DNA from: Pyrinomonadaceae bacterium
GTDB lineage: Bacteria > Acidobacteriota > Blastocatellia > Pyrinomonadales > Pyrinomonadaceae
NCBI GenBank assembly: GCA_035645715.1
Contig: DASQMB010000056.1
Location: forward strand, 18,551-82,550
DNA length: 64,000 nucleotides
Reading direction: 5' to 3'
The notes beneath the pieces were generated by a model, which was not told the DNA's origin, searched no databases, and saw nothing but the letters and a program-made list of their open reading frames with translations. Positions 3,401 to 36,865 of this stretch are shown piece after piece. Within the stretch, counting starts at the first letter, position 1. Each line of letters begins with the position of its first letter. Position numbers and translations under genes: made by a program.

Positions 3401-4034
3401 GTGCGTCGTTGGTGGCGACGAGCGGGATGCCTGTGCGCTTCGACAGCTCGACGAGGCTGCCGTTGATCCGTTGCTGGTCTTCGAGCTTGTGGTCCTGTAT
3501 TTCGAGGTAGTAGTTGCCGCGCCCGAGGATGTCCTGAAACTCGTGGGCCGCGCGCTCGGCCGCTTCGATGTTGCCCTCCTTGAGGTGCGCCTGCGGCACG
3601 CCCGACAGACAGGCCGAGAGCCCGATGAGGCCGCCGCCGAACTGCGACAAGAGCTCGCGGTCGATGCGCGGCTTGCGGTAGAAGCCCTCGCGGAAAGCCT
3701 TCGACGTGAGGCGCACGAGGTTGTGGTAGCCCTCGCGGTCCTTCGCCAGCAGGATCATGTGGTTGTAGGGCTTCACGCCTTTGCGCCCGTCGGCCTTCTC
3801 GAACCTGCTCGACGGTGCCAGGTAGACCTCACAGCCGATCAGCGGTTTGATGTCGGCCGCTTTCATCTCCTTGTAGAAGGAGACGGCGCCGTACATGTTG
3901 CCGTGGTCTGTCATGGCGCAGGCCGTCATGCCGAGTTCTTTGACGCGCTCGGCGAGGGGCTTGATCTGGATGGCGCCGTCGAGGAGTGAATAGTCTGTGT
4001 GCAGGTGGAGGTGTGCGAAGTCAGTCTTGGGCAT
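492..4034 (-). CDS. dnaE: DNA polymerase III alpha subunit
   Basis: The ORF is 1180 aa. It has the N-terminal PHP motif HLHLHTDYSLLDG, the pol III alpha core (FLIVWDFIRFARERGIPVGPGRGSAAGSLIAYCLEITDVDP, PDIDIDF) and a C-terminal OB-fold region. Confidence 0.97.
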   Translation of the reverse strand: MPKTDFAHLHLHTDYSLLDGAIQIKPLAERVKELGMTACAMTDHGNMYGAVSFYKEMKAADIKPLIGCEVYLAPSSRFEKADGRKGVKPYNHMILLAKDREGYHNLVRLTSKAFREGFYRKPRIDRELLSQFGGGLIGLSACLSGVPQAHLKEGNIEAAERAAHEFQDILGRGNYYLEIQDHKLEDQQRINGSLVELSKRTGIPLVATNDAHYLMRDDYEAHDVMLCIGTGKTVNDRDRMSFGGPEWYVRSPDEMAQIFTYAPDAVSRTMEVAEMCNLKLPLGENHLPVFPIPAEEGDISIDEYFEKVVRQGYEKRRETVWDPMISSGTLRHRLDEYQQRVSREIAIIKQMGFPSYFLIVWDFIRFARERGIPVGPGRGSAAGSLIAYCLEITDVDPLQYDLLFERFLNPERVSMPDIDIDFCVNGRAEVINHVTQLYGRDSVCQIITFGTLASKAAIKDVGRALDMPYADVEKIAKLIPPPIRGRNVSISQALEMVPELKQAVESDPQVRKVIDIAKRLEGCARHSSVHAAGVVISPKPLEELIPVAVNNKQEFTTQFEMSDLEKTGMLKMDFLGLTTLSIIDQCCKSIRELHGREIDWKLVPQDDPKTFELFGLGRTEAVFQFESSGMQEICRKLKPKSIEDLSALNALYRPGPLDGGMVDDFIDRYHGKKTVEYITPEMEDILRNTYGVLVYQEQIMQLAQKLGGYSLGEADLMRRAMGKKKREEMAVHEEKFVEGCTKNKIPKKKAKEIFRLMAQFADYGFNRSHSVAYAHVAYQTAYLKANFPEHFYAAVMTYCTDDAAKIFKYASELRAQKIRMLPPDVNESRQGFTPVEGAIRYGLSAIKGLGQTAVSAVIEGRRERPFKSLFDFAERVGEKGSGKRVMESLVCAGAFDSLMPSGDEPHHWRATLHANVDRALELGARRRRERDSGQADMFGMLAAAQPEGPDDHAQLTDAPAWTHRQMLDNEKAAVGFYVSGHPLEDHAEKIGWLNCTPVPDLVSAGPTARVRVAGIISEFAVRNTKKGDRYAMFKVEDLSGSSVKCVMWPESFRTKGQEAANDKVVVVTGRCEGAAEGNPQLILDEVAPIETAKNAGSRFGGPNKTLVVEFEVDGDCVRVSETISQALLAHPGDCEVLLDMLLKDEGLKVKARTGGVIRVQPNERLQEELRAAGAVARWVN

Positions 4035-30518: not shown

Positions 30519-33500
30519 TCAGGTGATGAGGTCGAAGTCGCCGTCGAGGACGCGGTCGAGGCGCCCCGTGCGCCAGCCGCGCACGGAGTCGCGGACGAGC
30601 GGCGAGGGCTCCTCGCGGTAGCGGCGGACGATCTGCGCCGTTGCCTCGTCGGTTGCCATCGCCGCTTCGGCCTGACGCCTTAGCGCCTCGGGACCGTGGC
30701 CGGCGGGCTCGTCCGGCTGGCCGACGACGCGGACGCGCGCCCGCGCACGGCTGAAGGAAGACTTCTCGCCCTGCGGCGATTCGAGGACGTGCAGGCCGCC
30801 CTCGGCCTTGAGGATCGTGTAGGCGGCGTAGCCCGAGACGGCGAGCAGCGCGCGGTAGCCCCCGCCCGCGCCGTCGCCCTGCTCCGGCTCGCCCCCTCGT
30901 TCTTCGAGGACGGCCAGCCTCATCCGCCGCTTCTCGGCCCAGCGGCGGTACATGCCCGCCAGGGCTCGCGCGAAGCGCGAGCCGGCCGCGCGGTCGTCGC
31001 CCGGTTCGTCGGAGGCTGCGACGAGCAGGAAGGCGTCGCGCGGCTCGCCGGCTTCGAGCCCGCGGCGCGCCTCGCCGAGCAGGTAGAGCTGTTGGGCGAG
31101 GCGCGCGACGAGGTCCTGCGGCAACCTGCGCGGCCCTTCATGCGAGCCGGCACGGCCGAGGCGCGAAAGCAGCGAGCCGGCCGTGTCGAGGCCCGCCTCG
31201 ATGCGGTCCATGTACTCGATCAGGCCGAGCACGGAGAAGCGCGCCGCCGAGTTCCAGAAGTGGGCCGACTGCGTCTGCCGCAGCGACTCCTCCTTACGAC
31301 CGCGCCAATCGCCCGACTCGACCAACACCGCCAGCTCCTCGTAGATGTCGCGCAGCAGTTCCAGCTCGGCGGCCGTGCCCCTCGCGTCGAGCGCGATTCC
31401 TTCAACCCTCAACTCCTCGGGGGCCGCGGCCCTGGCGGCCTCCTGCCCGGCGGACTCGGCGTGGGCAGACGCGGACTCGGCCGCCGTCTCCGGGTCGGGC
31501 GCGTCCGGGTCCACGAACTCCACGTCGAGCGACTCCTGACCGGCCGACGAGCGGACGAAGAGGAACTGGTCGCCCTCCGGGTACTGGTGGTTGACGATGG
31601 CGATGGCGAGCGGCGCGAGCAGGTAACGCTCGACGGCGCGCTTGAGGGGCCGCGCGCCGAGGTCGGCCGTGAAGCCCTTCTCCAGCAGGAACTCGATGGC
31701 CGACTCGTCCCACTCGACGGCCCACTGGCGCGTGCGCAGTCCGCGCCGGTTGAGCACGTCGTGGAGCTCCTTGCGCAGCAGGTCGCGCATCACTGCGCGC
31801 CCGAGCGGGCGGAAGACGACGACGCGGTCGATGCGGTTGACGAACTCGCGGCGGAAGGCGCGCCCCACCGCGCGCTCGACCGAGGCCGAGGCGAACTGCG
31901 CCTGCTCCTGCGAGAAGCCGATGGAGGCCCCGTGCGGGAGCGTCGCCCCGAGGTTCGAGGTCATGATGATGACCGAGTGGCGGAAGTCTGCGGTGTTGCC
32001 GCGCCGGTCGGTCAGGCGCCCGTCGTCGAAGACCTGTAGGAAGAGGTCCCAGACCTGCGGGTGCGCCTTCTCGAACTCGTCGAGGAGGACGACCGAGAAG
32101 GGCTGCTTACGAATCTGGTTGACGAGGGCCGTGCTGCTGCTCGTCTCCGAGGCTTCGCCGAGGATGCGGTCGAGCGAGTCGGGCGTCTGGAACTCGCTCA
32201 TGTCGAGGCGGATCATGCGGTCGGGCGAGCCGAAGAGGAACTCTGCGAGCGTCTTGGCGATCTCGGTCTTGCCCGTCCCCGTCGGGCCGACGAAGAGGAA
32301 GACGCCCTGCGGGCGGGTCGGGTCCGTCACGCCCGCCTTGACCATCGCCACGCGCTCGACCAGGCACTCGACGGCCTCCGGCTGGCCCAGCACGCGCCGC
32401 TCGAAGAAGGCGCGCAAGGCGGAGAGGTCGAGCCCCTCGCGCTCGTCGAGAATCTGGCGCGGCAGGCCGGTCATCTGCGAGAGCGTGACGAGCAGGTCGT
32501 CGAGCGTGAGCTGCCGCTGCGTGTAGGAAGCCTCGTCTTCGGCGAGCTGGCGGCGGCGCGCCGCGTCGAGGAAGAAGAGGAGATTGCCGGGCGCGGCCTT
32601 GTCGGCGAGGTACTGCTGTGCGAGCTGGAACGCCTCGCGCAACGTCTCGTCGGGGACGCGCCGCATGTCCGCGCCCGGCAGCGGCAGGCCGAGCGCGAAC
32701 CGCTCGGACCAGCGGCGCCCGAGTGCCATCGTCTCCTCGTCGCCGAGCGGCGAGAGCAGGCAGGTCTGCATCGCCGTGCGCAGCTTCGGGCGCATCCGCA
32801 CCAACTGCTCGAAGGGCGCGGGCTCGATCTCGCCGACCACCTTCAGCTTGCCGCTCTCGATCTCGGGCAGCATCATGTCGAGCACGCCGGTCGGGTTCTG
32901 GCTGTGGCGGCCGGCCCAGAGCATCTCGTGGAAGTTGGGCACGACCCAGAGCACGCGCCGGTCGCCCACCTCTCGGACGAGCGAGTGGAGCCGCCCTTCG
33001 ATCATGCCGATGTACTGCTGGCCCGATATCAGGTCGGCGGCGCCGGCCTCGAAGACGAGCCAGCCGTCGGCGCGCAGCCGGTCGGCGGCGGCCCGCAGCA
33101 CCGCCGTCTTGCCCGTGCCCGAGTCGCCGACGAGCAGGACGCTGCGCGGCGGGTCGTTCCGGAGCGCCGACTCGATCTCCGAGACGCGCGCCTCGACGGT
33201 CGGCGTCGTGAAGACCTCGCCGCCCGCGCCGGCCTCCCAGACGCGCCCGAAGGATTTCAGAAACTCCATCGTCTCACGCTGCTTCACCCAAACGGCCAGG
33301 CCCTCGGCCAGTCCGGCCGGAAGCACGTCCGACAAATCACCCATGAGCAGCCCGACCTCGGCCACCTGTGCCGTGCCCAGGCGCCCGCGCTCGCAGGCCG
33401 CGAGCAGGTCGTCGAGCGTCAACGCCTCGCCGGCTTCGAGCCGGCCCGCGACGAACTCTCGCAACGAGCTGAGCGGCACGAACTCTCGCCAGGAGGAGTC

Positions 33501-34229
33501 GAGGCTCGCCAGGAGCCCCGCGAGCACCGGCCGCCGCGCGTGCGCGCCGAGCGCCCTCAGCGCGTAGAAGCGTTGCCAGGGCCAGCAGTCGTTGACGAGG
33601 GGCAGGAGGCGCTCGGCCGTCTCGCCGGACGAATCGGGCGTGCGCCGGGCGAGGGCTTCGAGCGCCATGCATGCCAGGACGGCGGGGGTGGTGAAGGTGT
33701 GCGCGATCATCTCGACGGTCGTCGCGCCCCCGTCGCGCAGCAGCTCGACGCCGCGGTTGAACTCTTCGCTCTCAAGCAACTCGCGCGGGTGCGCCGTGCG
33801 GTTGAAGAATTCATCCAAACCCCAGGCGAGCGCCTGGGGGGCGTCGCCGGCTGCCTCCGCCTTCTCAGTCGCTTCCGCCCACTCCGTCGCCTCGACCTCC
33901 CGCGCCGTCTCCGCGCCCCAGGCAGTTCCTCCCGTCTGTGTCCATTCCGCCGACGCCGCTTCGCCCGAATCGCTCACCAGCCGCAGGGCAGGCACCGCCT
34001 CTTCGTTCAGACGAGCCGGACCCGCCGCGCCCCCGTCAACCCCCGACTCATCAACCGCCGCCCGCCTCTTCTCTTCGCCGGTCCTCACTTTTTCCAGCTC
34101 GGCATGGAGCCGGGCCGACTCCCTCTCGGCCTCGGCCCGCCGCTCGTCGGCCGCGCGCAGCCGCCCCAGCGCTAGCCAGAGCGCGCCGGCGCACAGCAGG
34201 CACAGGATGAGGAGTCCGAGTTCGAGCAT
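30519..34229 (-). CDS. Membrane-anchored ClpA/ClpB-type double AAA+ ATPase with C-terminal release-factor-like (RF2-like, GGQ-less) domain
   Basis: The ORF is 1236 aa. It starts with a TM helix (MLELGLLILCLLCAGALWLALG) and a coiled coil. D1 has Walker A GDSGTGKT but a degenerate Walker B (LWVVPNFHEM). D2 is canonical (GPTGTGKT, VVLLDEFEKAHP, IIMTSNLG, GARPLKRAV). From about aa 940 to 1236 it resembles RF2 domains 1, 2 and 4. Confidence 0.92.
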   Translation of the reverse strand: MLELGLLILCLLCAGALWLALGRLRAADERRAEAERESARLHAELEKVRTGEEKRRAAVDESGVDGGAAGPARLNEEAVPALRLVSDSGEAASAEWTQTGGTAWGAETAREVEATEWAEATEKAEAAGDAPQALAWGLDEFFNRTAHPRELLESEEFNRGVELLRDGGATTVEMIAHTFTTPAVLACMALEALARRTPDSSGETAERLLPLVNDCWPWQRFYALRALGAHARRPVLAGLLASLDSSWREFVPLSSLREFVAGRLEAGEALTLDDLLAACERGRLGTAQVAEVGLLMGDLSDVLPAGLAEGLAVWVKQRETMEFLKSFGRVWEAGAGGEVFTTPTVEARVSEIESALRNDPPRSVLLVGDSGTGKTAVLRAAADRLRADGWLVFEAGAADLISGQQYIGMIEGRLHSLVREVGDRRVLWVVPNFHEMLWAGRHSQNPTGVLDMMLPEIESGKLKVVGEIEPAPFEQLVRMRPKLRTAMQTCLLSPLGDEETMALGRRWSERFALGLPLPGADMRRVPDETLREAFQLAQQYLADKAAPGNLLFFLDAARRRQLAEDEASYTQRQLTLDDLLVTLSQMTGLPRQILDEREGLDLSALRAFFERRVLGQPEAVECLVERVAMVKAGVTDPTRPQGVFLFVGPTGTGKTEIAKTLAEFLFGSPDRMIRLDMSEFQTPDSLDRILGEASETSSSTALVNQIRKQPFSVVLLDEFEKAHPQVWDLFLQVFDDGRLTDRRGNTADFRHSVIIMTSNLGATLPHGASIGFSQEQAQFASASVERAVGRAFRREFVNRIDRVVVFRPLGRAVMRDLLRKELHDVLNRRGLRTRQWAVEWDESAIEFLLEKGFTADLGARPLKRAVERYLLAPLAIAIVNHQYPEGDQFLFVRSSAGQESLDVEFVDPDAPDPETAAESASAHAESAGQEAARAAAPEELRVEGIALDARGTAAELELLRDIYEELAVLVESGDWRGRKEESLRQTQSAHFWNSAARFSVLGLIEYMDRIEAGLDTAGSLLSRLGRAGSHEGPRRLPQDLVARLAQQLYLLGEARRGLEAGEPRDAFLLVAASDEPGDDRAAGSRFARALAGMYRRWAEKRRMRLAVLEERGGEPEQGDGAGGGYRALLAVSGYAAYTILKAEGGLHVLESPQGEKSSFSRARARVRVVGQPDEPAGHGPEALRRQAEAAMATDEATAQIVRRYREEPSPLVRDSVRGWRTGRLDRVLDGDFDLIT

Positions 34230-34344
34230 AAAGAGGTAGCGGGCTTAACGATTGTCGGCCGGGAAGGGCCGCGGGTTACGGCGGAAGAAATCCGAAGGCG
34301 GGACGGATGTTAACACGGGCCGCGGAGTCGAAATAAACTGACGG

Positions 34345-34390
34345 CAAAAAGAGGCCGCGCCGCCGGCCCACGAGGGGCGGCGGCGCGGCC
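34345..34390 (-). terminator. Strong intrinsic terminator (minus strand)
   Basis: A 12-bp perfect GC stem (ggccgcgccgcc / ggcggcgcggcc) plus inner pairs. On the minus strand it is followed by CUCUUUUUG. Confidence 0.8.
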
Positions 34391-34873
34391 TGTTCCCGTT
34401 GAAACGCCGAAGCGCGTCATGGGATGGCGGCTGCGCTGCATGTACACGCAAGCGCGGCCATTTTTATATCCCGAAGCGCGGGCCAGCGGTCGGCCTTGCC
34501 TCCGGTCGGCTCGGACTTTCATCGGCTTGCGCCTCTTCGAGTCCCCGCCGCCCTCACGGGCGCGGTGCCGTTTGGTTTTTGTTCTGGTGGCTGTCCTCCA
34601 CCGCCGGTCTACGTTCCGGCGAAACGAGGTCCGACCGAGGTCGGACGACTGACTGCCCCGAAGTTGATCACTCCTCAGGGCGCGAGCGCGTTTTTATCCG
34701 CGTCGCCCGGAGAGCCTGCCGACTCTCCTCCAGCAAGCCTTTCGGCTTCGGCCCGGGCGTCATTGGCGACAACTTAAATCCGCTGCTGTTGCCGTCCTCG
34801 GGCGTCGGGCATTTCTGCCCTCGACCCGCCGATCCCGCGCCGGTCACGGCCCCCTTGAGAACCGCGACGGGAT
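34345..34873 (-). ncRNA. Candidate ~530-nt structured non-coding transcript (family not identified)
   Basis: The unit is bounded by a consensus promoter and the terminator above. It contains no convincing ORF. It has many short perfect hairpins, several with GNRA loops (34807..34820 GAAA, 34736..34747 GAAA, 34549..34562 GUGA), plus 34709..34728 and 34629..34646. Confidence 0.45.
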
Positions 34874-34877
34874 GCGG

Positions 34878-34906
34878 ACTATACGCACCGCGCCACACCC
34901 TGTCAA
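34878..34906 (-). promoter_or_regulatory. Consensus sigma70-type promoter on the minus strand
   Basis: On the minus strand it reads TTGACA (34906..34901), a 17-nt spacer, then TATAGT (34883..34878). An A7 run lies just upstream. Confidence 0.6.
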
Positions 34907-34991
34907 GCGGTTTTTTTCGCCGGCCGAAATCACCAATTAAAGCCCGCGTGTGATGATTTTCCGAGGGCTCGCAGGCGCTGGCAGTTGGCCT

Positions 34992-36731
34992 TCAGCGGCC
35001 GTGGAGCGGAAGGCGGAACGCGGCCATCTCTTCGCCGTTGCGGACCAGCAGCACGTCGCCGACCAGGACGGGGTGGTTCCAGGTCTTCCCCCTGATGGCC
35101 GAAAACCGCGCCAGTTCCTCGAAGCGTTCGGGGGCCGCGCCGGCCAGCGCCAGCTCGCCCTGCTCAGACACCACCAGCAACACGTCCTGTTCGGGCAGCA
35201 GGATGAGCTGGCCGGAGCCGTAGTTTCCGCCCTCCCACCTGCGCCCGCCGTCCGCGAGGTCGATGCAGGCGAGCGTGCCGTTGTCGAACCCGTAGGCGTG
35301 GCCGCGGTGCACGACGAAGTCGTTGAAGTAGGGCTTCAGCCCGTCGGTTGTCCAGCGCTCTTCGACCTTCCATCCGTCGCCGGCGTGCGCGACCGCGATG
35401 CGGTGCAGGTCGGCCCCCTCGCCGTCGCTCACCAGCAGGTCTCCGTCCGCGGTCAGGGCCGGCTGAACGATGCGGGTGTTCTGCGACAGTGGGTACTGCC
35501 AGAGCAGCCTTCCGTCCTCCGGCGCGACGCTGACCACGCCGGGGCCGCTCAGCAGCACGATCTGCGTGATTCCGTCAATCGTCGCTAAGTGGGGTGAGCT
35601 GTAACCGCTCCCGCCCTTCGGGCCGAACCAGCGTTGCTCGCCGGTGGCCGCGTCGTAGGCGGCGAGCGTGCCGGCGGTGGCGACGACGACCGCGTCGCCG
35701 ATCAACAGCGGCGAGCCGGCGAAGCCCCAGCCCGGAACCTTGGTCTGCGTGTCGGCGGCCGCGTTGCGCGACCAGACGACCGAGCCGTCGCCGGCATCGA
35801 GCGCGTTCAGGATGCCGGTCGCGCCGAGCGTGTAGACACGGCCGCCGCCGAGAGTCGGGGTCCCGCGCGGTCCGGCCCCGGCGTTCGACTCCCAGAACCT
35901 CGCCTCGTCGCGGTGGACCCAGACCGGCTGGCCCGTGGACGCGTTGTAGCAGGCGACGACCTCGTGCGGGCCGCGCTGCTCTTGCGTGTAGAGGCGGTCG
36001 CCGCCGACCGCGAAGGACGACCAGCCCGGCCCGACGGGGCGGCGCCACAACTCGACCGGCGGCGAAGTTTTCCAGTCGGTTGCGATCCGCACACCGCGGA
36101 CGACGCCGTCGCGCTCGGGGCCGCGAAAGCCGGGCCACGCCGCCCCGGCCTCCGCCGCCGGGGCCGACGTGCCGGGTGCCGGTTCGTCGCCGGCGCGGGC
36201 CAGCAGTCGCTGCTCGGGCGTCTGCGACCAGCGCCAGGCGAAGTCCGAATCGGCATCGCCGGTGATGCCGCCCGTCCGCAAAAGCGTGAAGGCGCCGCAG
36301 GCGATCAGGACGGCGGCGGCCAGGACCGCGCGCCGTCGCCCGTCGGAAAGCCGGCGGCCGACCGCCGCCCCGGCGGCGAGCGCCATGCTCACGAACACGA
36401 GGCCGTAGATGGGGAACATCATCCCCATCATGCCCCCCGCGATTGATTCGTGGAGGAGCGGCCGGGCCGCGACCATCGCGGCGACCAAAAGGGCGACGAT
36501 CCCCCACCGCTCGGCGCGCGGAGCGCGGCTGAAGAAGGCCCACCAGACGACGATCCCCAGCCCGCCAATCACCCCGGCCAGCAGGCCGAAGATGAGGGCT
36601 CCGGGCGCGACGAGTGGGACGACGAACCAGCCGAGCAGTTGCAGAGTGACGAAGAGGAGGCCGGGCCACAGCCGGAGCGGTTTCCGAATGGGGGCGCGGT
36701 CTGAGTGTTTGTCTGTGTGGGGGAGGGCCAT
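34992..36731 (-). CDS. Membrane-anchored PQQ-like (BamB-type) beta-propeller repeat protein
   Basis: About four N-terminal TM helices are followed by repeated propeller blades (GGRVYTLGATGILNALDAGDGSVVWS, TLAAYDAATGEQRWF, GTLACIDLADGGRRWE). The start is taken at MALPHTD (36731). Confidence 0.85.
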   Translation of the reverse strand: MALPHTDKHSDRAPIRKPLRLWPGLLFVTLQLLGWFVVPLVAPGALIFGLLAGVIGGLGIVVWWAFFSRAPRAERWGIVALLVAAMVAARPLLHESIAGGMMGMMFPIYGLVFVSMALAAGAAVGRRLSDGRRRAVLAAAVLIACGAFTLLRTGGITGDADSDFAWRWSQTPEQRLLARAGDEPAPGTSAPAAEAGAAWPGFRGPERDGVVRGVRIATDWKTSPPVELWRRPVGPGWSSFAVGGDRLYTQEQRGPHEVVACYNASTGQPVWVHRDEARFWESNAGAGPRGTPTLGGGRVYTLGATGILNALDAGDGSVVWSRNAAADTQTKVPGWGFAGSPLLIGDAVVVATAGTLAAYDAATGEQRWFGPKGGSGYSSPHLATIDGITQIVLLSGPGVVSVAPEDGRLLWQYPLSQNTRIVQPALTADGDLLVSDGEGADLHRIAVAHAGDGWKVEERWTTDGLKPYFNDFVVHRGHAYGFDNGTLACIDLADGGRRWEGGNYGSGQLILLPEQDVLLVVSEQGELALAGAAPERFEELARFSAIRGKTWNHPVLVGDVLLVRNGEEMAAFRLPLHGR

Positions 36732-36865
36732 GTCAGACCAATACGCCGCCCGAGAGGCCGTTTGTTCCCCGGGCTCGCGGCCCGACCGCGGCCCGACCCA
36801 GCGCCGGGGCGGCGGCGGCATTTCTTACCGGAGTGACGGGCGGGCGAATCGTCTCGACTCTTCGG

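Follow-up and report, generated by a model that had tools for sequence, protein, structure and literature searches.

A promoter-to-terminator unit upstream of an AAA+/RF-like gene

The window, that is, the whole 64,000-nucleotide stretch of Pyrinomonadaceae DNA analysed here, carries on its minus strand a gene for an AAA+/RF-like protein whose ATG lies at 34229 and, upstream of that gene, a unit of about 525 nt that is bracketed by a promoter and an intrinsic terminator and whose RNA 3' end lies 117 nt from the ATG. An earlier interpretation made from the letters alone (hereafter the sequence-only reading) had proposed a minus-strand promoter-to-terminator unit of ~530 nt ending ~115 nt before the same ATG, and both values agree with ours. 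The 5' end of the RNA was placed from the promoter and from the point at which conservation starts. The features of the unit are the following.

34907-34920, minus strand: A-rich, UP-element-like tract 5' of the -35 hexamer, recognised from sequence
34878-34906, minus strand: near-consensus sigma-70-type promoter (TTGACA 34906-34901, 17-nt spacer, TATAGT 34883-34878)
34347-34872, minus strand: body of the non-coding RNA (ncRNA), about 520-525 nt, defined by full-length nhmmer homologues, consensus fold, and z = -5.9
34843-34868, minus strand: 5' hairpin GUCGCGGUUC-UCAA-GGGGGCCGUGAC (helix 2; 11 pairs, double-sided changes in 5, 99.7% of cells paired)
GGGA at about 34397-34394, minus strand: short end-closing helix UCCC/GGGA, joining the 5' and 3' ends and adjoining the 5' hairpin (helix 1)
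34749-34842, minus strand: multi-helix domain I (helices 3-6, covarying)
34820-34807, minus strand: GNRA-capped hairpin of domain I, tip loop GAAA/GUGA/GCAA/GCGA
34735-34748, minus strand: hairpin AAGCC-GAAA-GGCUU (helix 7; 100% paired, 3 of 5 pairs compensatory, GAAA invariant)
34687-34702, minus strand: hairpin with invariant 8-nt loop GAUAAAAA (helix 11; GC-to-CG swap in stem)
34655-34681, minus strand: candidate kissing loop 1 hairpin, 9-nt loop AG-UGAUCA-A (hexamer 34670-34665)
34571-34629, minus strand: most conserved core, nearly every column invariant in 30 copies
34508-34569, minus strand: variable domain III, with lineage-specific insertions (helices 16-19, still covarying)
34463-34505, minus strand: domain IV, CCGGAGG...CUUCGG plus conserved GGGAUAYAAA junction (helices 20-22)
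34429-34459, minus strand: candidate kissing loop 2 hairpin, palindrome UGUACA 34446-34441 (helix 23)
34401-34418, minus strand: UUCG-capped hairpin, followed by the GGGA strand of the end-closing helix (helix 25)
34345-34391, minus strand: intrinsic terminator from a terminator scan, G+C-rich hairpin 34391-34352, then U-tract 34351-34345

The promoter scores 11/12 in a promoter scan, and the 2-kb region holds two promoter-like sites vs. 0.1 expected from shuffles. The -35 element, the spacer, and the -10 element are exact in 32 of the 36 homologous copies for which upstream DNA was read, and the remaining four keep TTGACA and have a variant -10 element. In the window the A-tract proper occupies 34911-34917, and most of the 36 copies have an A/T-rich tract in the corresponding position, in genomes of 60-70% GC. 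The textbook promoter with an upstream A-tract described in the sequence-only reading is therefore present and conserved. The terminator described there is present as a GC stem and U-tract, but its stem comprises 17 pairs with one bulge rather than 12 bp, with CUUUUUG (34351-34345) after it. In the consensus fold it is helix 26, in which 10 of the 17 pairs are compensatory, and a U-run follows it in all copies. By sequence, the unit thus has both features of an independent transcription unit: its own conserved promoter and its own conserved intrinsic terminator. The exact promoter (32/36) and the UP-like tract together suggest that the RNA is likely to be highly expressed.

Covariation supports a closed, multi-domain RNA fold

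The minus strand has a minimum free energy (MFE) of -280.9 kcal/mol, with z = -5.9 relative to dinucleotide shuffles; the plus strand has z = -3.9. An alignment of 30 full-length copies yields a consensus fold with 142 pairs in 26 helices, in which 96.0% of consensus pairs are paired, vs. 33-45% in a control in which the partners were slid, and in which 75 pairs show compensatory double changes, vs. 15-26 with partners slid. None of 500 shuffles reached any of the covariation measures, and many conserved G-U pairs are compatible with the minus strand only. The structured, non-coding unit postulated from the sequence is borne out by these results. The short hairpins listed with it are all in the sequence, and most of them are also in the MFE and consensus folds.

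The fold is closed and multi-domain; it contains tetraloops of the GNRA and UUCG types, and several of its A-rich loops and linkers are invariant. The GNRA loops had been put forward as a hallmark of large folded RNAs, and their conservation is genuine: one of them reads GAAA, GUGA, GCAA, or GCGA across homologues, so that in it only the loop class is kept. Loops and linkers of invariant sequence include GAUAAAAA, AACGUAGA, AGGNAAAG, and AGAACAAAAACCAAA. Also conserved are GCCAnUGACGCC in domain I (n = A/G/U/C), GGAUAAAAACG at the hairpin at 34687-34702 (invariant in all copies), and GCCGACCGG and GGRAUAYAAA in the region of domain IV. The core comprises CCUCGUU, a CCGG-AACGUAGA-CCGG hairpin, a GGUGG-AGGACAG-CCACC hairpin, and single-stranded AGAACAAAAACCAAA. 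At the other extreme, the domain III insertions of the window copy and of locus L013 differ from each other, and most copies have neither. A scan of all column pairs for covarying pseudoknots, additional long-range helices, or a tetraloop receptor gave none that is convincing; its output consisted only of G/C-rich, G-U-tolerant chance helices. In size, in covarying helices, and in conserved unpaired nucleotides the RNA has the properties of a large ornate bacterial ncRNA, a class that is descriptive and does not imply homology.

Homologues define a family within the Pyrinomonadaceae

Homologues were retrieved with nhmmer, and metagenome copies with the core pattern (34571-34629), on which the covariance model (CM) R1 is also centred. 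The homologous copies number 40, of which 8 come from Pyrinomonadaceae/Acidobacteriota metagenome-assembled genomes and 32 from metagenome contigs; every copy not truncated by its contig is full length, and in all of them promoter and terminator lie on the same strand. CM R1, run over the window and loci L001-L099, including all 80 AAA+/RF loci, found nothing beyond the nhmmer copies, and the window itself holds one copy.

No Rfam 15 model reached its gathering score in the window or in 11 homologous loci (models searched including OLE, ROOL, GOLLD, raiA, HEARO, Acido-1, and Acido-Lenti-1). At E <= 10 there were sub-threshold matches only, mostly in the terminator region; the best, Pxr, reached 27.6 bits where 80 is the threshold, with most of the score over the terminator hairpin. 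Cmscan against Rfam and ARAGORN, both named as checks in the sequence-only reading, thus return no known family and no tmRNA. Our search of the literature on large ncRNAs of Pyrinomonadaceae, Blastocatellia, or Acidobacteria found nothing relevant.

A phage-borne or mobile-element-borne RNA was considered and rejected: there were no matches among 2.9 million viral contigs, the window has a single copy and no tRNA genes in its 64 kb (ARAGORN), and the locus is a conserved chromosomal block beside a housekeeping gene of 85-92% identity. A CsrA-type sponge presenting GGA in loops was likewise rejected; GGA is not repeated in similar hairpins, and several occurrences are lost, CCAGAACG replacing CCGGAACG.

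We conclude that positions 34345-34920 of the minus strand very probably specify an ncRNA that is real, structured, and independent and that belongs to a new family, previously undescribed and, as far as these data show, confined to part of the Pyrinomonadaceae (Acidobacteriota).

The unit is neither a coding remnant nor a tmRNA or RNase P RNA

Open reading frames do overlap the region: those on the minus strand span 68-76 aa, and the longest on the plus strand reaches 184 aa. They could be taken for a decayed protein-coding remnant or for genes for small proteins. Frames of this size are, however, expected at 65-70% GC, variability among the 30 homologues shows no 3-base periodicity (0.17 / 0.16 / 0.14), of 634 pairwise indels, 547 have lengths not divisible by three, and base-pair covariation is pervasive. 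The earlier statement that the unit has no credible open reading frame therefore holds, and we assign the coding explanation a negligible probability. Equally negligible is the probability that the unit represents this lineage's own divergent version of tmRNA or RNase P RNA. That possibility was raised by two strings, GUC-GCC-AAU-GAC, which resembles a tmRNA resume-codon context, and GAUGAAAGUCCGAGCC, which resembles the P4 strand of RNase P RNA; it is also compatible with a strong promoter of the kind used by stable RNAs, and tmRNA and RNase P RNA are themselves abundant stable RNAs of several hundred nt. Both strings are literally present, GUCGCCAAUGAC at 34770-34759 in domain I and GAUGAAAGUCCGAGCC at 34523-34508 in domain III, but neither is a conserved feature. 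In the 64-kb window ARAGORN detected neither a standard nor a permuted tmRNA, and the Rfam tmRNA and RNase P models gave no match even at E <= 10. The RNA has no T-arm, acceptor stem, or CCA; its ends pair only via UCCC/GGGA, with the terminator after. Read as a tag from GCC-AAU-GAC, the sequence translates to ANDARAEAERLAGGESAGSPGDADKNALAP and a stop, and the 5' part of the RNA is loosely like the 5' end of a tmRNA, but the homologues break both frame and codon: the AAU codon reads AAU, AGU, AUU, or ACU, indels of 1-2 nt follow it, and, with a variable middle base, non-3n indels, and no periodicity, there is no conserved tag reading frame. The P4-like string lies inside the domain III insertion peculiar to the window copy and does not recur in the other copies; most homologues are without an insertion there. 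Every defining feature of tmRNA and RNase P RNA that was tested is missing from the window RNA, and both resemblances are due to chance. The locus thus encodes neither tmRNA nor RNase P RNA, and a misleading clue is removed.

The downstream gene is a conserved neighbour

The AAA+/RF-like protein is membrane-anchored and combines a ClpB-like AAA+ part with a C-terminus that is RF domain-2/4-like, a release-factor decoding domain lacking GGQ. A reading of it as a defence-system component was rejected, PADLOC giving generic AAA-domain matches only. Among 13 informative metagenome loci, that is, loci retrieved by the RNA pattern alone and having enough downstream DNA, 12 have an AAA+/RF (AAA+/PCRF) gene downstream on the same strand, at 0.1-3.3 kb (within 3.5 kb), whereas the upstream neighbours differ; the PQQ-like gene upstream of the unit in the window is a neighbour in none of the homologous loci.

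This arrangement invites two explanations in terms of the gene. According to one, the RNA is a very long leader that acts in cis, like an attenuator or riboswitch, to control how far transcription reads through into the AAA+/RF-like gene, consistent with the same-strand, terminator-ended arrangement 117 nt upstream in the window and with direct adjacency also at loci L111, L129, L013, and L019. Across homologues, however, zero to three unrelated genes lie between the RNA terminator and the AAA+/RF gene; in several lineages the intervening genes are TerC-like, secreted, or oxidoreductase-like. What follows the terminator differs from locus to locus: a TerC-like gene, a gene for a secreted 280-aa protein, a methyltransferase-like open reading frame, or, at L116, a convergent flavoprotein gene. 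Moreover, neither the consensus fold nor the column-pair scan yields an alternative antiterminator pairing, every copy has the terminator as a covarying helix of 17 bp, and the size and closed architecture of the RNA are unlike those of known leaders. The comparative context largely refutes the leader reading, leaving it very improbable, and yields no evidence for riboregulation of the AAA+/RF-like gene; of the two options of the sequence-only reading, independent RNA or long leader, the first stands and the second falls. According to the other explanation, the RNA serves the AAA+/RF protein as a dedicated partner (cofactor, scaffold, decoy, or substrate mimic) in a translation or quality-control module. 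The association at 12 of 13 loci with differing upstream neighbours speaks for it, as does the C-terminus of the protein, the RF domain-2/4 fold being one that reads RNA on the ribosome. Against it, the protein family spans many phyla, in which the gaps upstream of the gene are mostly <250 nt, too short for the RNA, and in which the CM found no RNA at AAA+/RF loci, so that the idea of an analogous upstream RNA there was dropped. At three Pyrinomonadaceae loci (L006, L007, and L010) the AAA+ gene and a conserved neighbour of 666 aa are both retained, and the RNA is missing from the space between them; L116, representing the RNA clade that diverges most, lacks an AAA+ gene within 4 kb; unrelated genes and a strong terminator separate RNA from gene; and family-level synteny alone could explain the adjacency. 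We consider a dedicated partnership rather unlikely. The juxtaposition with a ribosome-related fusion protein, to which the sequence-only reading drew attention, amounts on this evidence to lineage-specific synteny, with the gene a conserved neighbour rather than a demonstrated partner.

Two palindromic loops suggest self-association

Loop 1 contains a self-complementary hexamer that occurs once per RNA and reads UAAUUA in 14, UGAUCA in 10, UGAUCG in 3, UGAUUA in 2, and UAAUUG in 1 of the 30 copies, its self-complementarity never being mismatched. Positions 2 and 5 are G-C, G.U, or A-U, and never A/C; position 6 changes from A to G four times, each time keeping a U.G pair; and, with changes mapped on the tree, the route from UGAUCA to UAAUUA passes through UGAUUA. 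Because bases that lie two apart are unable to pair inside a single loop, pairing of the hexamer would have to be between strands; the MFE fold leaves the loop open. Because the independent events on the tree are few (at least two C-to-U, one or two G-to-A, and four A-to-G) and the sequences are related, the covariation is suggestive and not decisive. In loop 2, GUGUACA is invariant in 30/30 copies and the outer stem covaries, with UGUACA present once per RNA. By our estimate, an RNA with about 15 loops would have about 0.6 loop palindromes of 6 nt by chance, so that one such loop is not rare.

The layout of loop 1, purine-purine-hexamer-purine, is that of the kissing loop of the HIV-1 dimerisation initiation site (DIS), in whose 9 nt a self-complementary hexamer is preceded by two purines and followed by one, and whose natural variants switch between the palindromes GCGCGC and GUGCAC. 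The DIS differs in belonging to a viral genomic RNA and in its G+C-rich palindrome, whereas the palindromes here are rich in A/U and have a much lower predicted stability: as isolated self-duplexes, UAAUUA, UGAUUA, and UGAUCA have -0.4, -0.6, and -5.0 kcal/mol.

From these sequence patterns, self-association through the palindromic loops is a plausible property of the RNA, to which we give slightly less than an even chance. The RNA might instead be a monomeric ribonucleoprotein scaffold or protein sponge whose invariant loops, the palindromic ones included, are protein sites. The many invariant loops and linkers, such as GAUAAAAA, AACGUAGA, AGGNAAAG, and AGAACAAAAACCAAA, are like those of protein-bound RNAs, for example OLE, and the UAAUUA self-duplex is thermodynamically weak. 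However, a protein site is not expected to change two positions together while keeping self-complementarity through a G.U intermediate, and no gene for an RNA-binding protein is consistently adjacent. We regard the monomeric alternative as unlikely, if worth keeping in mind.

Discussion

The explanation that we favour for the whole of the data, and that we hold with moderate confidence, is that the unit encodes a stand-alone, ornate, trans-acting ncRNA of a new family that may self-associate. Such an RNA would act as an architectural particle, and neither by base-pairing with mRNA nor by controlling the downstream gene. Its UGAUCA/UAAUUA and UGUACA loops would make symmetric loop-loop (kissing) contacts between RNA copies, and these contacts could build a homodimer or higher oligomer, by analogy with OLE, ROOL, and GOLLD. 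The invariant A-rich loops may make tertiary or quaternary A-minor contacts or may be protein-binding sites.

OLE, ROOL, and GOLLD form RNA-only dimers and cages, as shown by cryo-EM (PMC12286853). Kretsch et al. used covarying palindromes to argue for intermolecular pairing at OLE L9.3 and GOLLD L21a, and cryo-EM confirmed it (PMC12286853). The window RNA resembles OLE (ornate, large, extremophilic; RF01071) in length (about 520 vs. about 600 nt), in being a stand-alone gene of narrow range, and in having many covarying helices interspersed with invariant loops. The contacts of the OLE dimer include a symmetric kissing loop with a covarying palindrome (PMC12286853), and the UGAUCA/UAAUUA loop is a matching signature, here from sequence alone. 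The two RNAs have no sequence or structure homology (no Rfam match), and OLE is found in Firmicutes beside oapA, with OapA/B/C at the membrane, whereas the window RNA is in another phylum and has no such genes. ROOL (RF03087) and GOLLD (RF01998) are homo-oligomers held by kissing loops and A-minor contacts, with a variable or disordered linker region (PMC12286853); the window RNA is similarly large and ornate, with invariant A-rich loops, two palindromic loops, and variable domain III. ROOL and GOLLD are not homologous to it, however, and are mostly phage-borne or prophage-borne and near tRNA genes, whereas the window RNA is chromosomal, with no viral matches and no tRNA genes, and its oligomerisation is predicted only. 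The smtA motif ('Soda Lake RNA'; Narunsky et al., 2024, PMC11109978) is, according to the parts of that report used here, also large (>350 nt), covariation-supported, restricted to one narrow lineage, and upstream of a gene that it probably does not regulate; it differs in host (Thioalkalivibrio), in neighbouring gene, and in its smaller size, and those parts of the report describe no palindromic loops.

The most far-reaching version of our proposal is a long shot: the RNA could, for the first time, take quaternary assembly of ornate RNAs beyond Firmicutes and phages, as a chromosomal, highly expressed, RNA-only dimer, ring, or cage formed via two kissing loops and possibly working with the AAA+/RF protein. 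If this were true, the RNA might, for example, serve that protein as a docking platform or as a ribosome-site mimic in a hitherto undescribed translation quality-control pathway.

To our knowledge, only a handful of bacterial ncRNAs longer than about 400 nt are without an assigned function (OLE, GOLLD, ROOL, HEARO relatives, and the smtA motif), and each such large ncRNA studied so far has repaid study. The alignment of 30 full-length sequences, from 40 copies in all, is a resource for structural biology, and the new family, very strongly backed by covariation, would extend the small set of ornate RNAs to another phylum and another lifestyle, that of abundant soil and desert Acidobacteria.

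Promoter, terminator, and homologous copies

The RNA gene lies on the minus strand between two protein genes, in the following arrangement.

34992-36821, minus strand: PQQ/BamB-like propeller gene, upstream of the RNA, 609-aa product
34917-34911, minus strand: A-tract
34906-34901, minus strand: −35 element TTGACA
Between TTGACA and TATAGT, minus strand: spacer, 17 nt
34883-34878, minus strand: −10 element TATAGT
Between promoter and terminator hairpin, minus strand: G+C-rich RNA body, ~525 nt
34391-34352, minus strand: long hairpin, terminator
34351-34345, minus strand: U-run CUUUUUG
30519-34229, minus strand: AAA+/RF gene, downstream of the RNA, 1236-aa product

A promoter scan gave the hexamers TTGACA/TATAGT a match of 11/12 and returned 2 promoter-like sites per 2 kb vs. 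0.1 in shuffles, and a terminator scan recovered the hairpin and U-run. The 1236-aa protein comprises two AAA+ modules resembling those of ClpB/ClpA, together with a ClpB D2-small domain, and has a PCRF fragment at its C-terminus.

Relatives of this AAA+/RF-like protein in GTDB species representatives supplied 80 loci; the closest relatives (55-66% identity) are from Pyrinomonadaceae/Acidobacteriota MAGs, and the family reaches Gemmatimonadales, Planctomycetota, Lysobacter, Hyphomicrobium, and others. When the window RNA was used as nhmmer query, 7 of the 80 loci showed a full-length match on the same strand, upstream of the AAA+/RF gene, and one further copy with an internal deletion came to light; when aligned, the copies have invariant −35 and −10 elements, a covarying terminator stem, and long identical blocks. 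A pattern for the most conserved core, GAACGTARAC-N20-32-AANAAAAACCAA, yielded 59 loci when scanned against JGI metagenome contigs, 32 of which were identified by profile search as real copies, for a total of 40 homologous copies besides that in the window, with pairwise divergence of up to 39%. (The other 27, within L081-L139, are chance pattern matches without similarity to the RNA and should be disregarded when the locus list is reused.) The core pattern had no match in 2.9 million viral contigs, and a covariance model of the conserved core, R1, recovered nothing additional or more distant from loci L001-L099 and no second copy from the window.

The promoter TTGACA-17-TATAGT is exact in 32 of the 36 copies with upstream DNA available; in the remaining four, which are the most divergent, TTGACA is kept alongside a variant −10 element. 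In most copies with upstream DNA, an A/T-rich tract lies 5' of the −35 element despite genomes of 60-70% GC, and in the consensus structure described below 10 of the 17 pairs of the terminator helix are compensatory. The promoter (window 34878-34920, minus strand; 36 loci) thus combines consensus −35 and −10 elements, 17-nt spacing, the A/T-rich tract, and G+C-rich CCGCC/CCGGC between −10 element and start. In E. coli, such a combination is a typical feature of rRNA and tRNA promoters subject to growth-rate/stringent control.

Covariation and non-coding character

The minimum-free-energy fold of the minus strand has −280.9 kcal/mol and z = −5.9 vs. dinucleotide shuffles (z = −3.9 for the opposite strand); all hairpins listed in the sequence-only reading are found in the sequence, and most occur in this fold. 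For A3, an alignment of 30 full-length copies made by MAFFT without structure fitting, RNAalifold gave 142 pairs in 26 helices, and for 75 of the 142 pairs at least one sequence has replaced both bases while still pairing. Standard pairs fill 96.0% of cells in this structure, vs. 87.7% in column shuffles, and 0 of 500 shuffles matched any observed pairing measure. With 3' partners slid by 1-3 columns, standard pairs fill 33-45% of cells and double-change pairs number 15-26, vs. 75 observed, a comparison that tends to favour the observed structure because the consensus was derived from A3 itself. Many conserved G-U pairs would become A-C mismatches on the opposite strand, which fits minus-strand transcription. 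Column variability exhibits no 3-base periodicity (0.17/0.16/0.14), and of 634 pairwise indels 547 have lengths that are not divisible by three; overlapping ORFs are therefore taken to be the usual high-GC artefacts. We conclude from these patterns that the region is structured and non-coding; the proposal of a promoter-to-terminator structured non-coding unit is confirmed by the scans, the covariation, and the lack of periodicity.

The RNA bears features typical of complex folds. The tip of one hairpin varies among GAAA, GUGA, GCAA, and GCGA, indicating that the GNRA class, and not the sequence, is conserved; a second GAAA loop is invariant, and several UUCG loops are conserved. Invariant A-rich loops or linkers comprise GAUAAAAA, AACGUAGA, AGGNAAAG, AGAACAAAAACCAAA, and GGGAUAYAAA, and a short helix, UCCC/GGGA, joins the 5' and 3' ends. 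Domain III (window 34569-34508, minus strand) varies in length among copies. It is a lineage-specific insertion hot spot, in which the window and L013 (~3500-3580) carry different extra hairpins, and its insertions recall the variable/disordered linker of ROOL. A shortened copy in an Acidobacteria MAG (L016:2582-2967) lacks ~130 nt in mid-RNA, corresponding to domains III-IV and the UGUACA hairpin, and retains the promoter, the 5' two-thirds, and the terminator; either natural deletion or faulty assembly would account for it.

Comparison with known RNA families

Rfam 15 gave no match at gathering score in the whole 64-kb window. A permissive scan (E ≤ 10, 34000-35200) gave sub-threshold matches only, several of them over the terminator, the best being Pxr at 27.6 bits vs. 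a threshold of 80, and ARAGORN found neither a tRNA nor a tmRNA. Therefore tmRNA, RNase P RNA, OLE, ROOL, GOLLD, raiA, HEARO, and Acido motifs are excluded as homologues. The sequence-only reading had pointed to two look-alike strings, both of which are, on comparison of copies, due to chance. The tmRNA-like resume-codon context GCC-AAU-GAC reads GCC-A[A/G/U/C]U-GAC in homologues, so that the second base of the putative Asn codon is the variable one, and is followed by 1-2 nt indels, and the RNA has none of the tmRNA hallmarks T-arm, acceptor stem, and CCA. The RNase P "P4-like" string, GAUGAAAGUCCGAGCC, sits in a variable-domain insertion absent from other copies. Our literature search found no paper describing this RNA, and we consider it very probable that it is a real, new, and independent ncRNA.

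Relation to the AAA+/RF-like gene

Two observations favour a link between RNA and AAA+/RF gene: of the 13 RNA-retrieved loci with enough downstream sequence, 12 carry the gene on the same strand no more than 3.5 kb away, and the upstream neighbour, by contrast, changes. The RNA could have been, as initially suggested, either an independent structured RNA or a long terminator-controlled leader. No other gene separates the terminator from the AAA+/RF gene in the window, L013, L019, L111, and L129. In L001, L004/L107, L085, L102, L104, and L112, between one and three unrelated genes intervene, whose products include a TerC-like protein, a ~280-aa secreted protein, and a ~420-aa TAT-signal protein. 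In L116 the next gene encodes a flavoprotein and is convergent, and the AAA+ gene is absent from the 4 kb around. Because the genes after the terminator differ among copies, the RNA does not serve as leader to any one gene, and we reject that reading; the independent structured RNA, with conserved promoter and terminator and varying downstream genes, proved right.

In many Pyrinomonadaceae, the RNA/AAA+ block is preceded by a divergently oriented, highly conserved gene of 666-669 aa (85-92% identity; product N-terminus MT..E.T.KRP.R.KF.GR.LFLTEDVSL.RRQLE). The RNA lies within the block formed by the 666-aa gene and the AAA+ gene in L085, L104, L124, and L127, and these two genes adjoin without RNA between them in L006, L007, and L010 (Pyrinomonadaceae), implying that the RNA gene was gained or lost inside a conserved block. 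The presence of the AAA+ gene without adjacent RNA implies that the protein needs no RNA in cis. Also speaking against a link, at AAA+/RF-like loci in other phyla the upstream gap is mostly <250 nt, and no RNA copies are detectable there. The adjacency of RNA and AAA+ gene is best taken as lineage synteny, with partnership an unproven possibility.

The upstream neighbour changes between RNA loci, the PQQ-like gene being unique to the window. In its product, the propeller is preceded by a long N-terminal stretch containing several hydrophobic segments; the protein weakly matches the NCBIfam "acido-empty-quinoprotein" model; the gene is not conserved as a neighbour of the RNA.

A hydrophobic helix, MLELGLLILCLLCAGALWLALG, is predicted at the N-terminus of the AAA+ protein, ahead of the two ATPase modules. 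In a by-eye alignment of its C-terminus with release-factor domains 2/4, YTILKAEGGLHVLESPQ replaces the RF2 SPF region and RLDRVLDGDFDLIT stands at the end; no RF-1/GGQ domain was detected, and the GGQ tripeptide is missing. The family (~1100-1300 aa; Acidobacteriota, Gemmatimonadota, Planctomycetota, Lysobacter, Hyphomicrobium, others) matches only generic Clp and RF models of NCBIfam, below cut-offs. We read it as a candidate "unfoldase with a decoding-site probe", as yet uncharacterised, that merits separate analysis.

Palindromic loops and candidate self-association

A search for covarying pseudoknots gave nothing reliable. Two hairpins have palindromic loops.

34681-34655, minus strand: hairpin with 8-9-bp covarying stem and 9-nt loop AG-UGAUCA-A
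34459-34429, minus strand: second hairpin with covarying outer stem and invariant loop with palindrome UGUACA

The first loop has five hexamer variants among 30 copies (UAAUUA in 14, UGAUCA in 10, UGAUCG in 3, UGAUUA in 2, and UAAUUG in 1), and all five are self-complementary with G.U allowed, although palindromic hexamers are not uncommon by chance. The combinations at positions 2 and 5 are G-C, G.U, or A-U, never A/C. On a tree built without the hexamer columns, C5-to-U has at least two origins, G2-to-A occurs on a U5 background only, and A6-to-G has four origins, with U1.G6 retained. The changes follow the classical compensatory route through a wobble intermediate, a covariation that rests on few independent events. 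Since positions 2 and 5, two bases apart, preclude pairing within one loop, and since the UGAUCA-type hexamer occurs once per RNA, pairing between two RNA copies would be the simplest reading. The HIV-1 dimerisation loop has the layout two purines, 6-nt palindrome, one purine, which is also that of AG-UGAUCA-A. The argument for pairing between copies was likewise made by Kretsch et al. (PMC12286853), who confirmed it with cryo-EM structures for loops L9.3 of OLE and L21a of GOLLD.

RNA copies would thus pair symmetrically through the UGAUCA-type loop and the UGUACA loop as kissing loops, and two symmetric contacts per monomer would permit a dimer or a larger closed assembly; the A/U-only hexamer variant has a very weak predicted duplex in isolation. 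We advance self-association through these two candidate kissing loops tentatively, as a possibility somewhat short of probable.

A new ornate RNA

By description, the RNA is a "large ornate" bacterial ncRNA, with OLE, ROOL, GOLLD, and the narrow-range smtA "Soda Lake" RNA (Narunsky et al., 2024; PMC11109978), and is a homologue of none of them. It resembles these RNAs in size, in dense covariation, in its invariant unpaired nucleotides, and in having a narrow distribution; OLE and GOLLD also have in common with it a covarying palindromic loop. It differs from them in host phylum and gene neighbourhood, and its location is chromosomal, not phage-borne. The best-supported account is that of a new family of ~520-nt ornate ncRNA in Pyrinomonadaceae, which, to judge from its promoter, would be strongly promoted and which may self-associate through the two candidate kissing loops.
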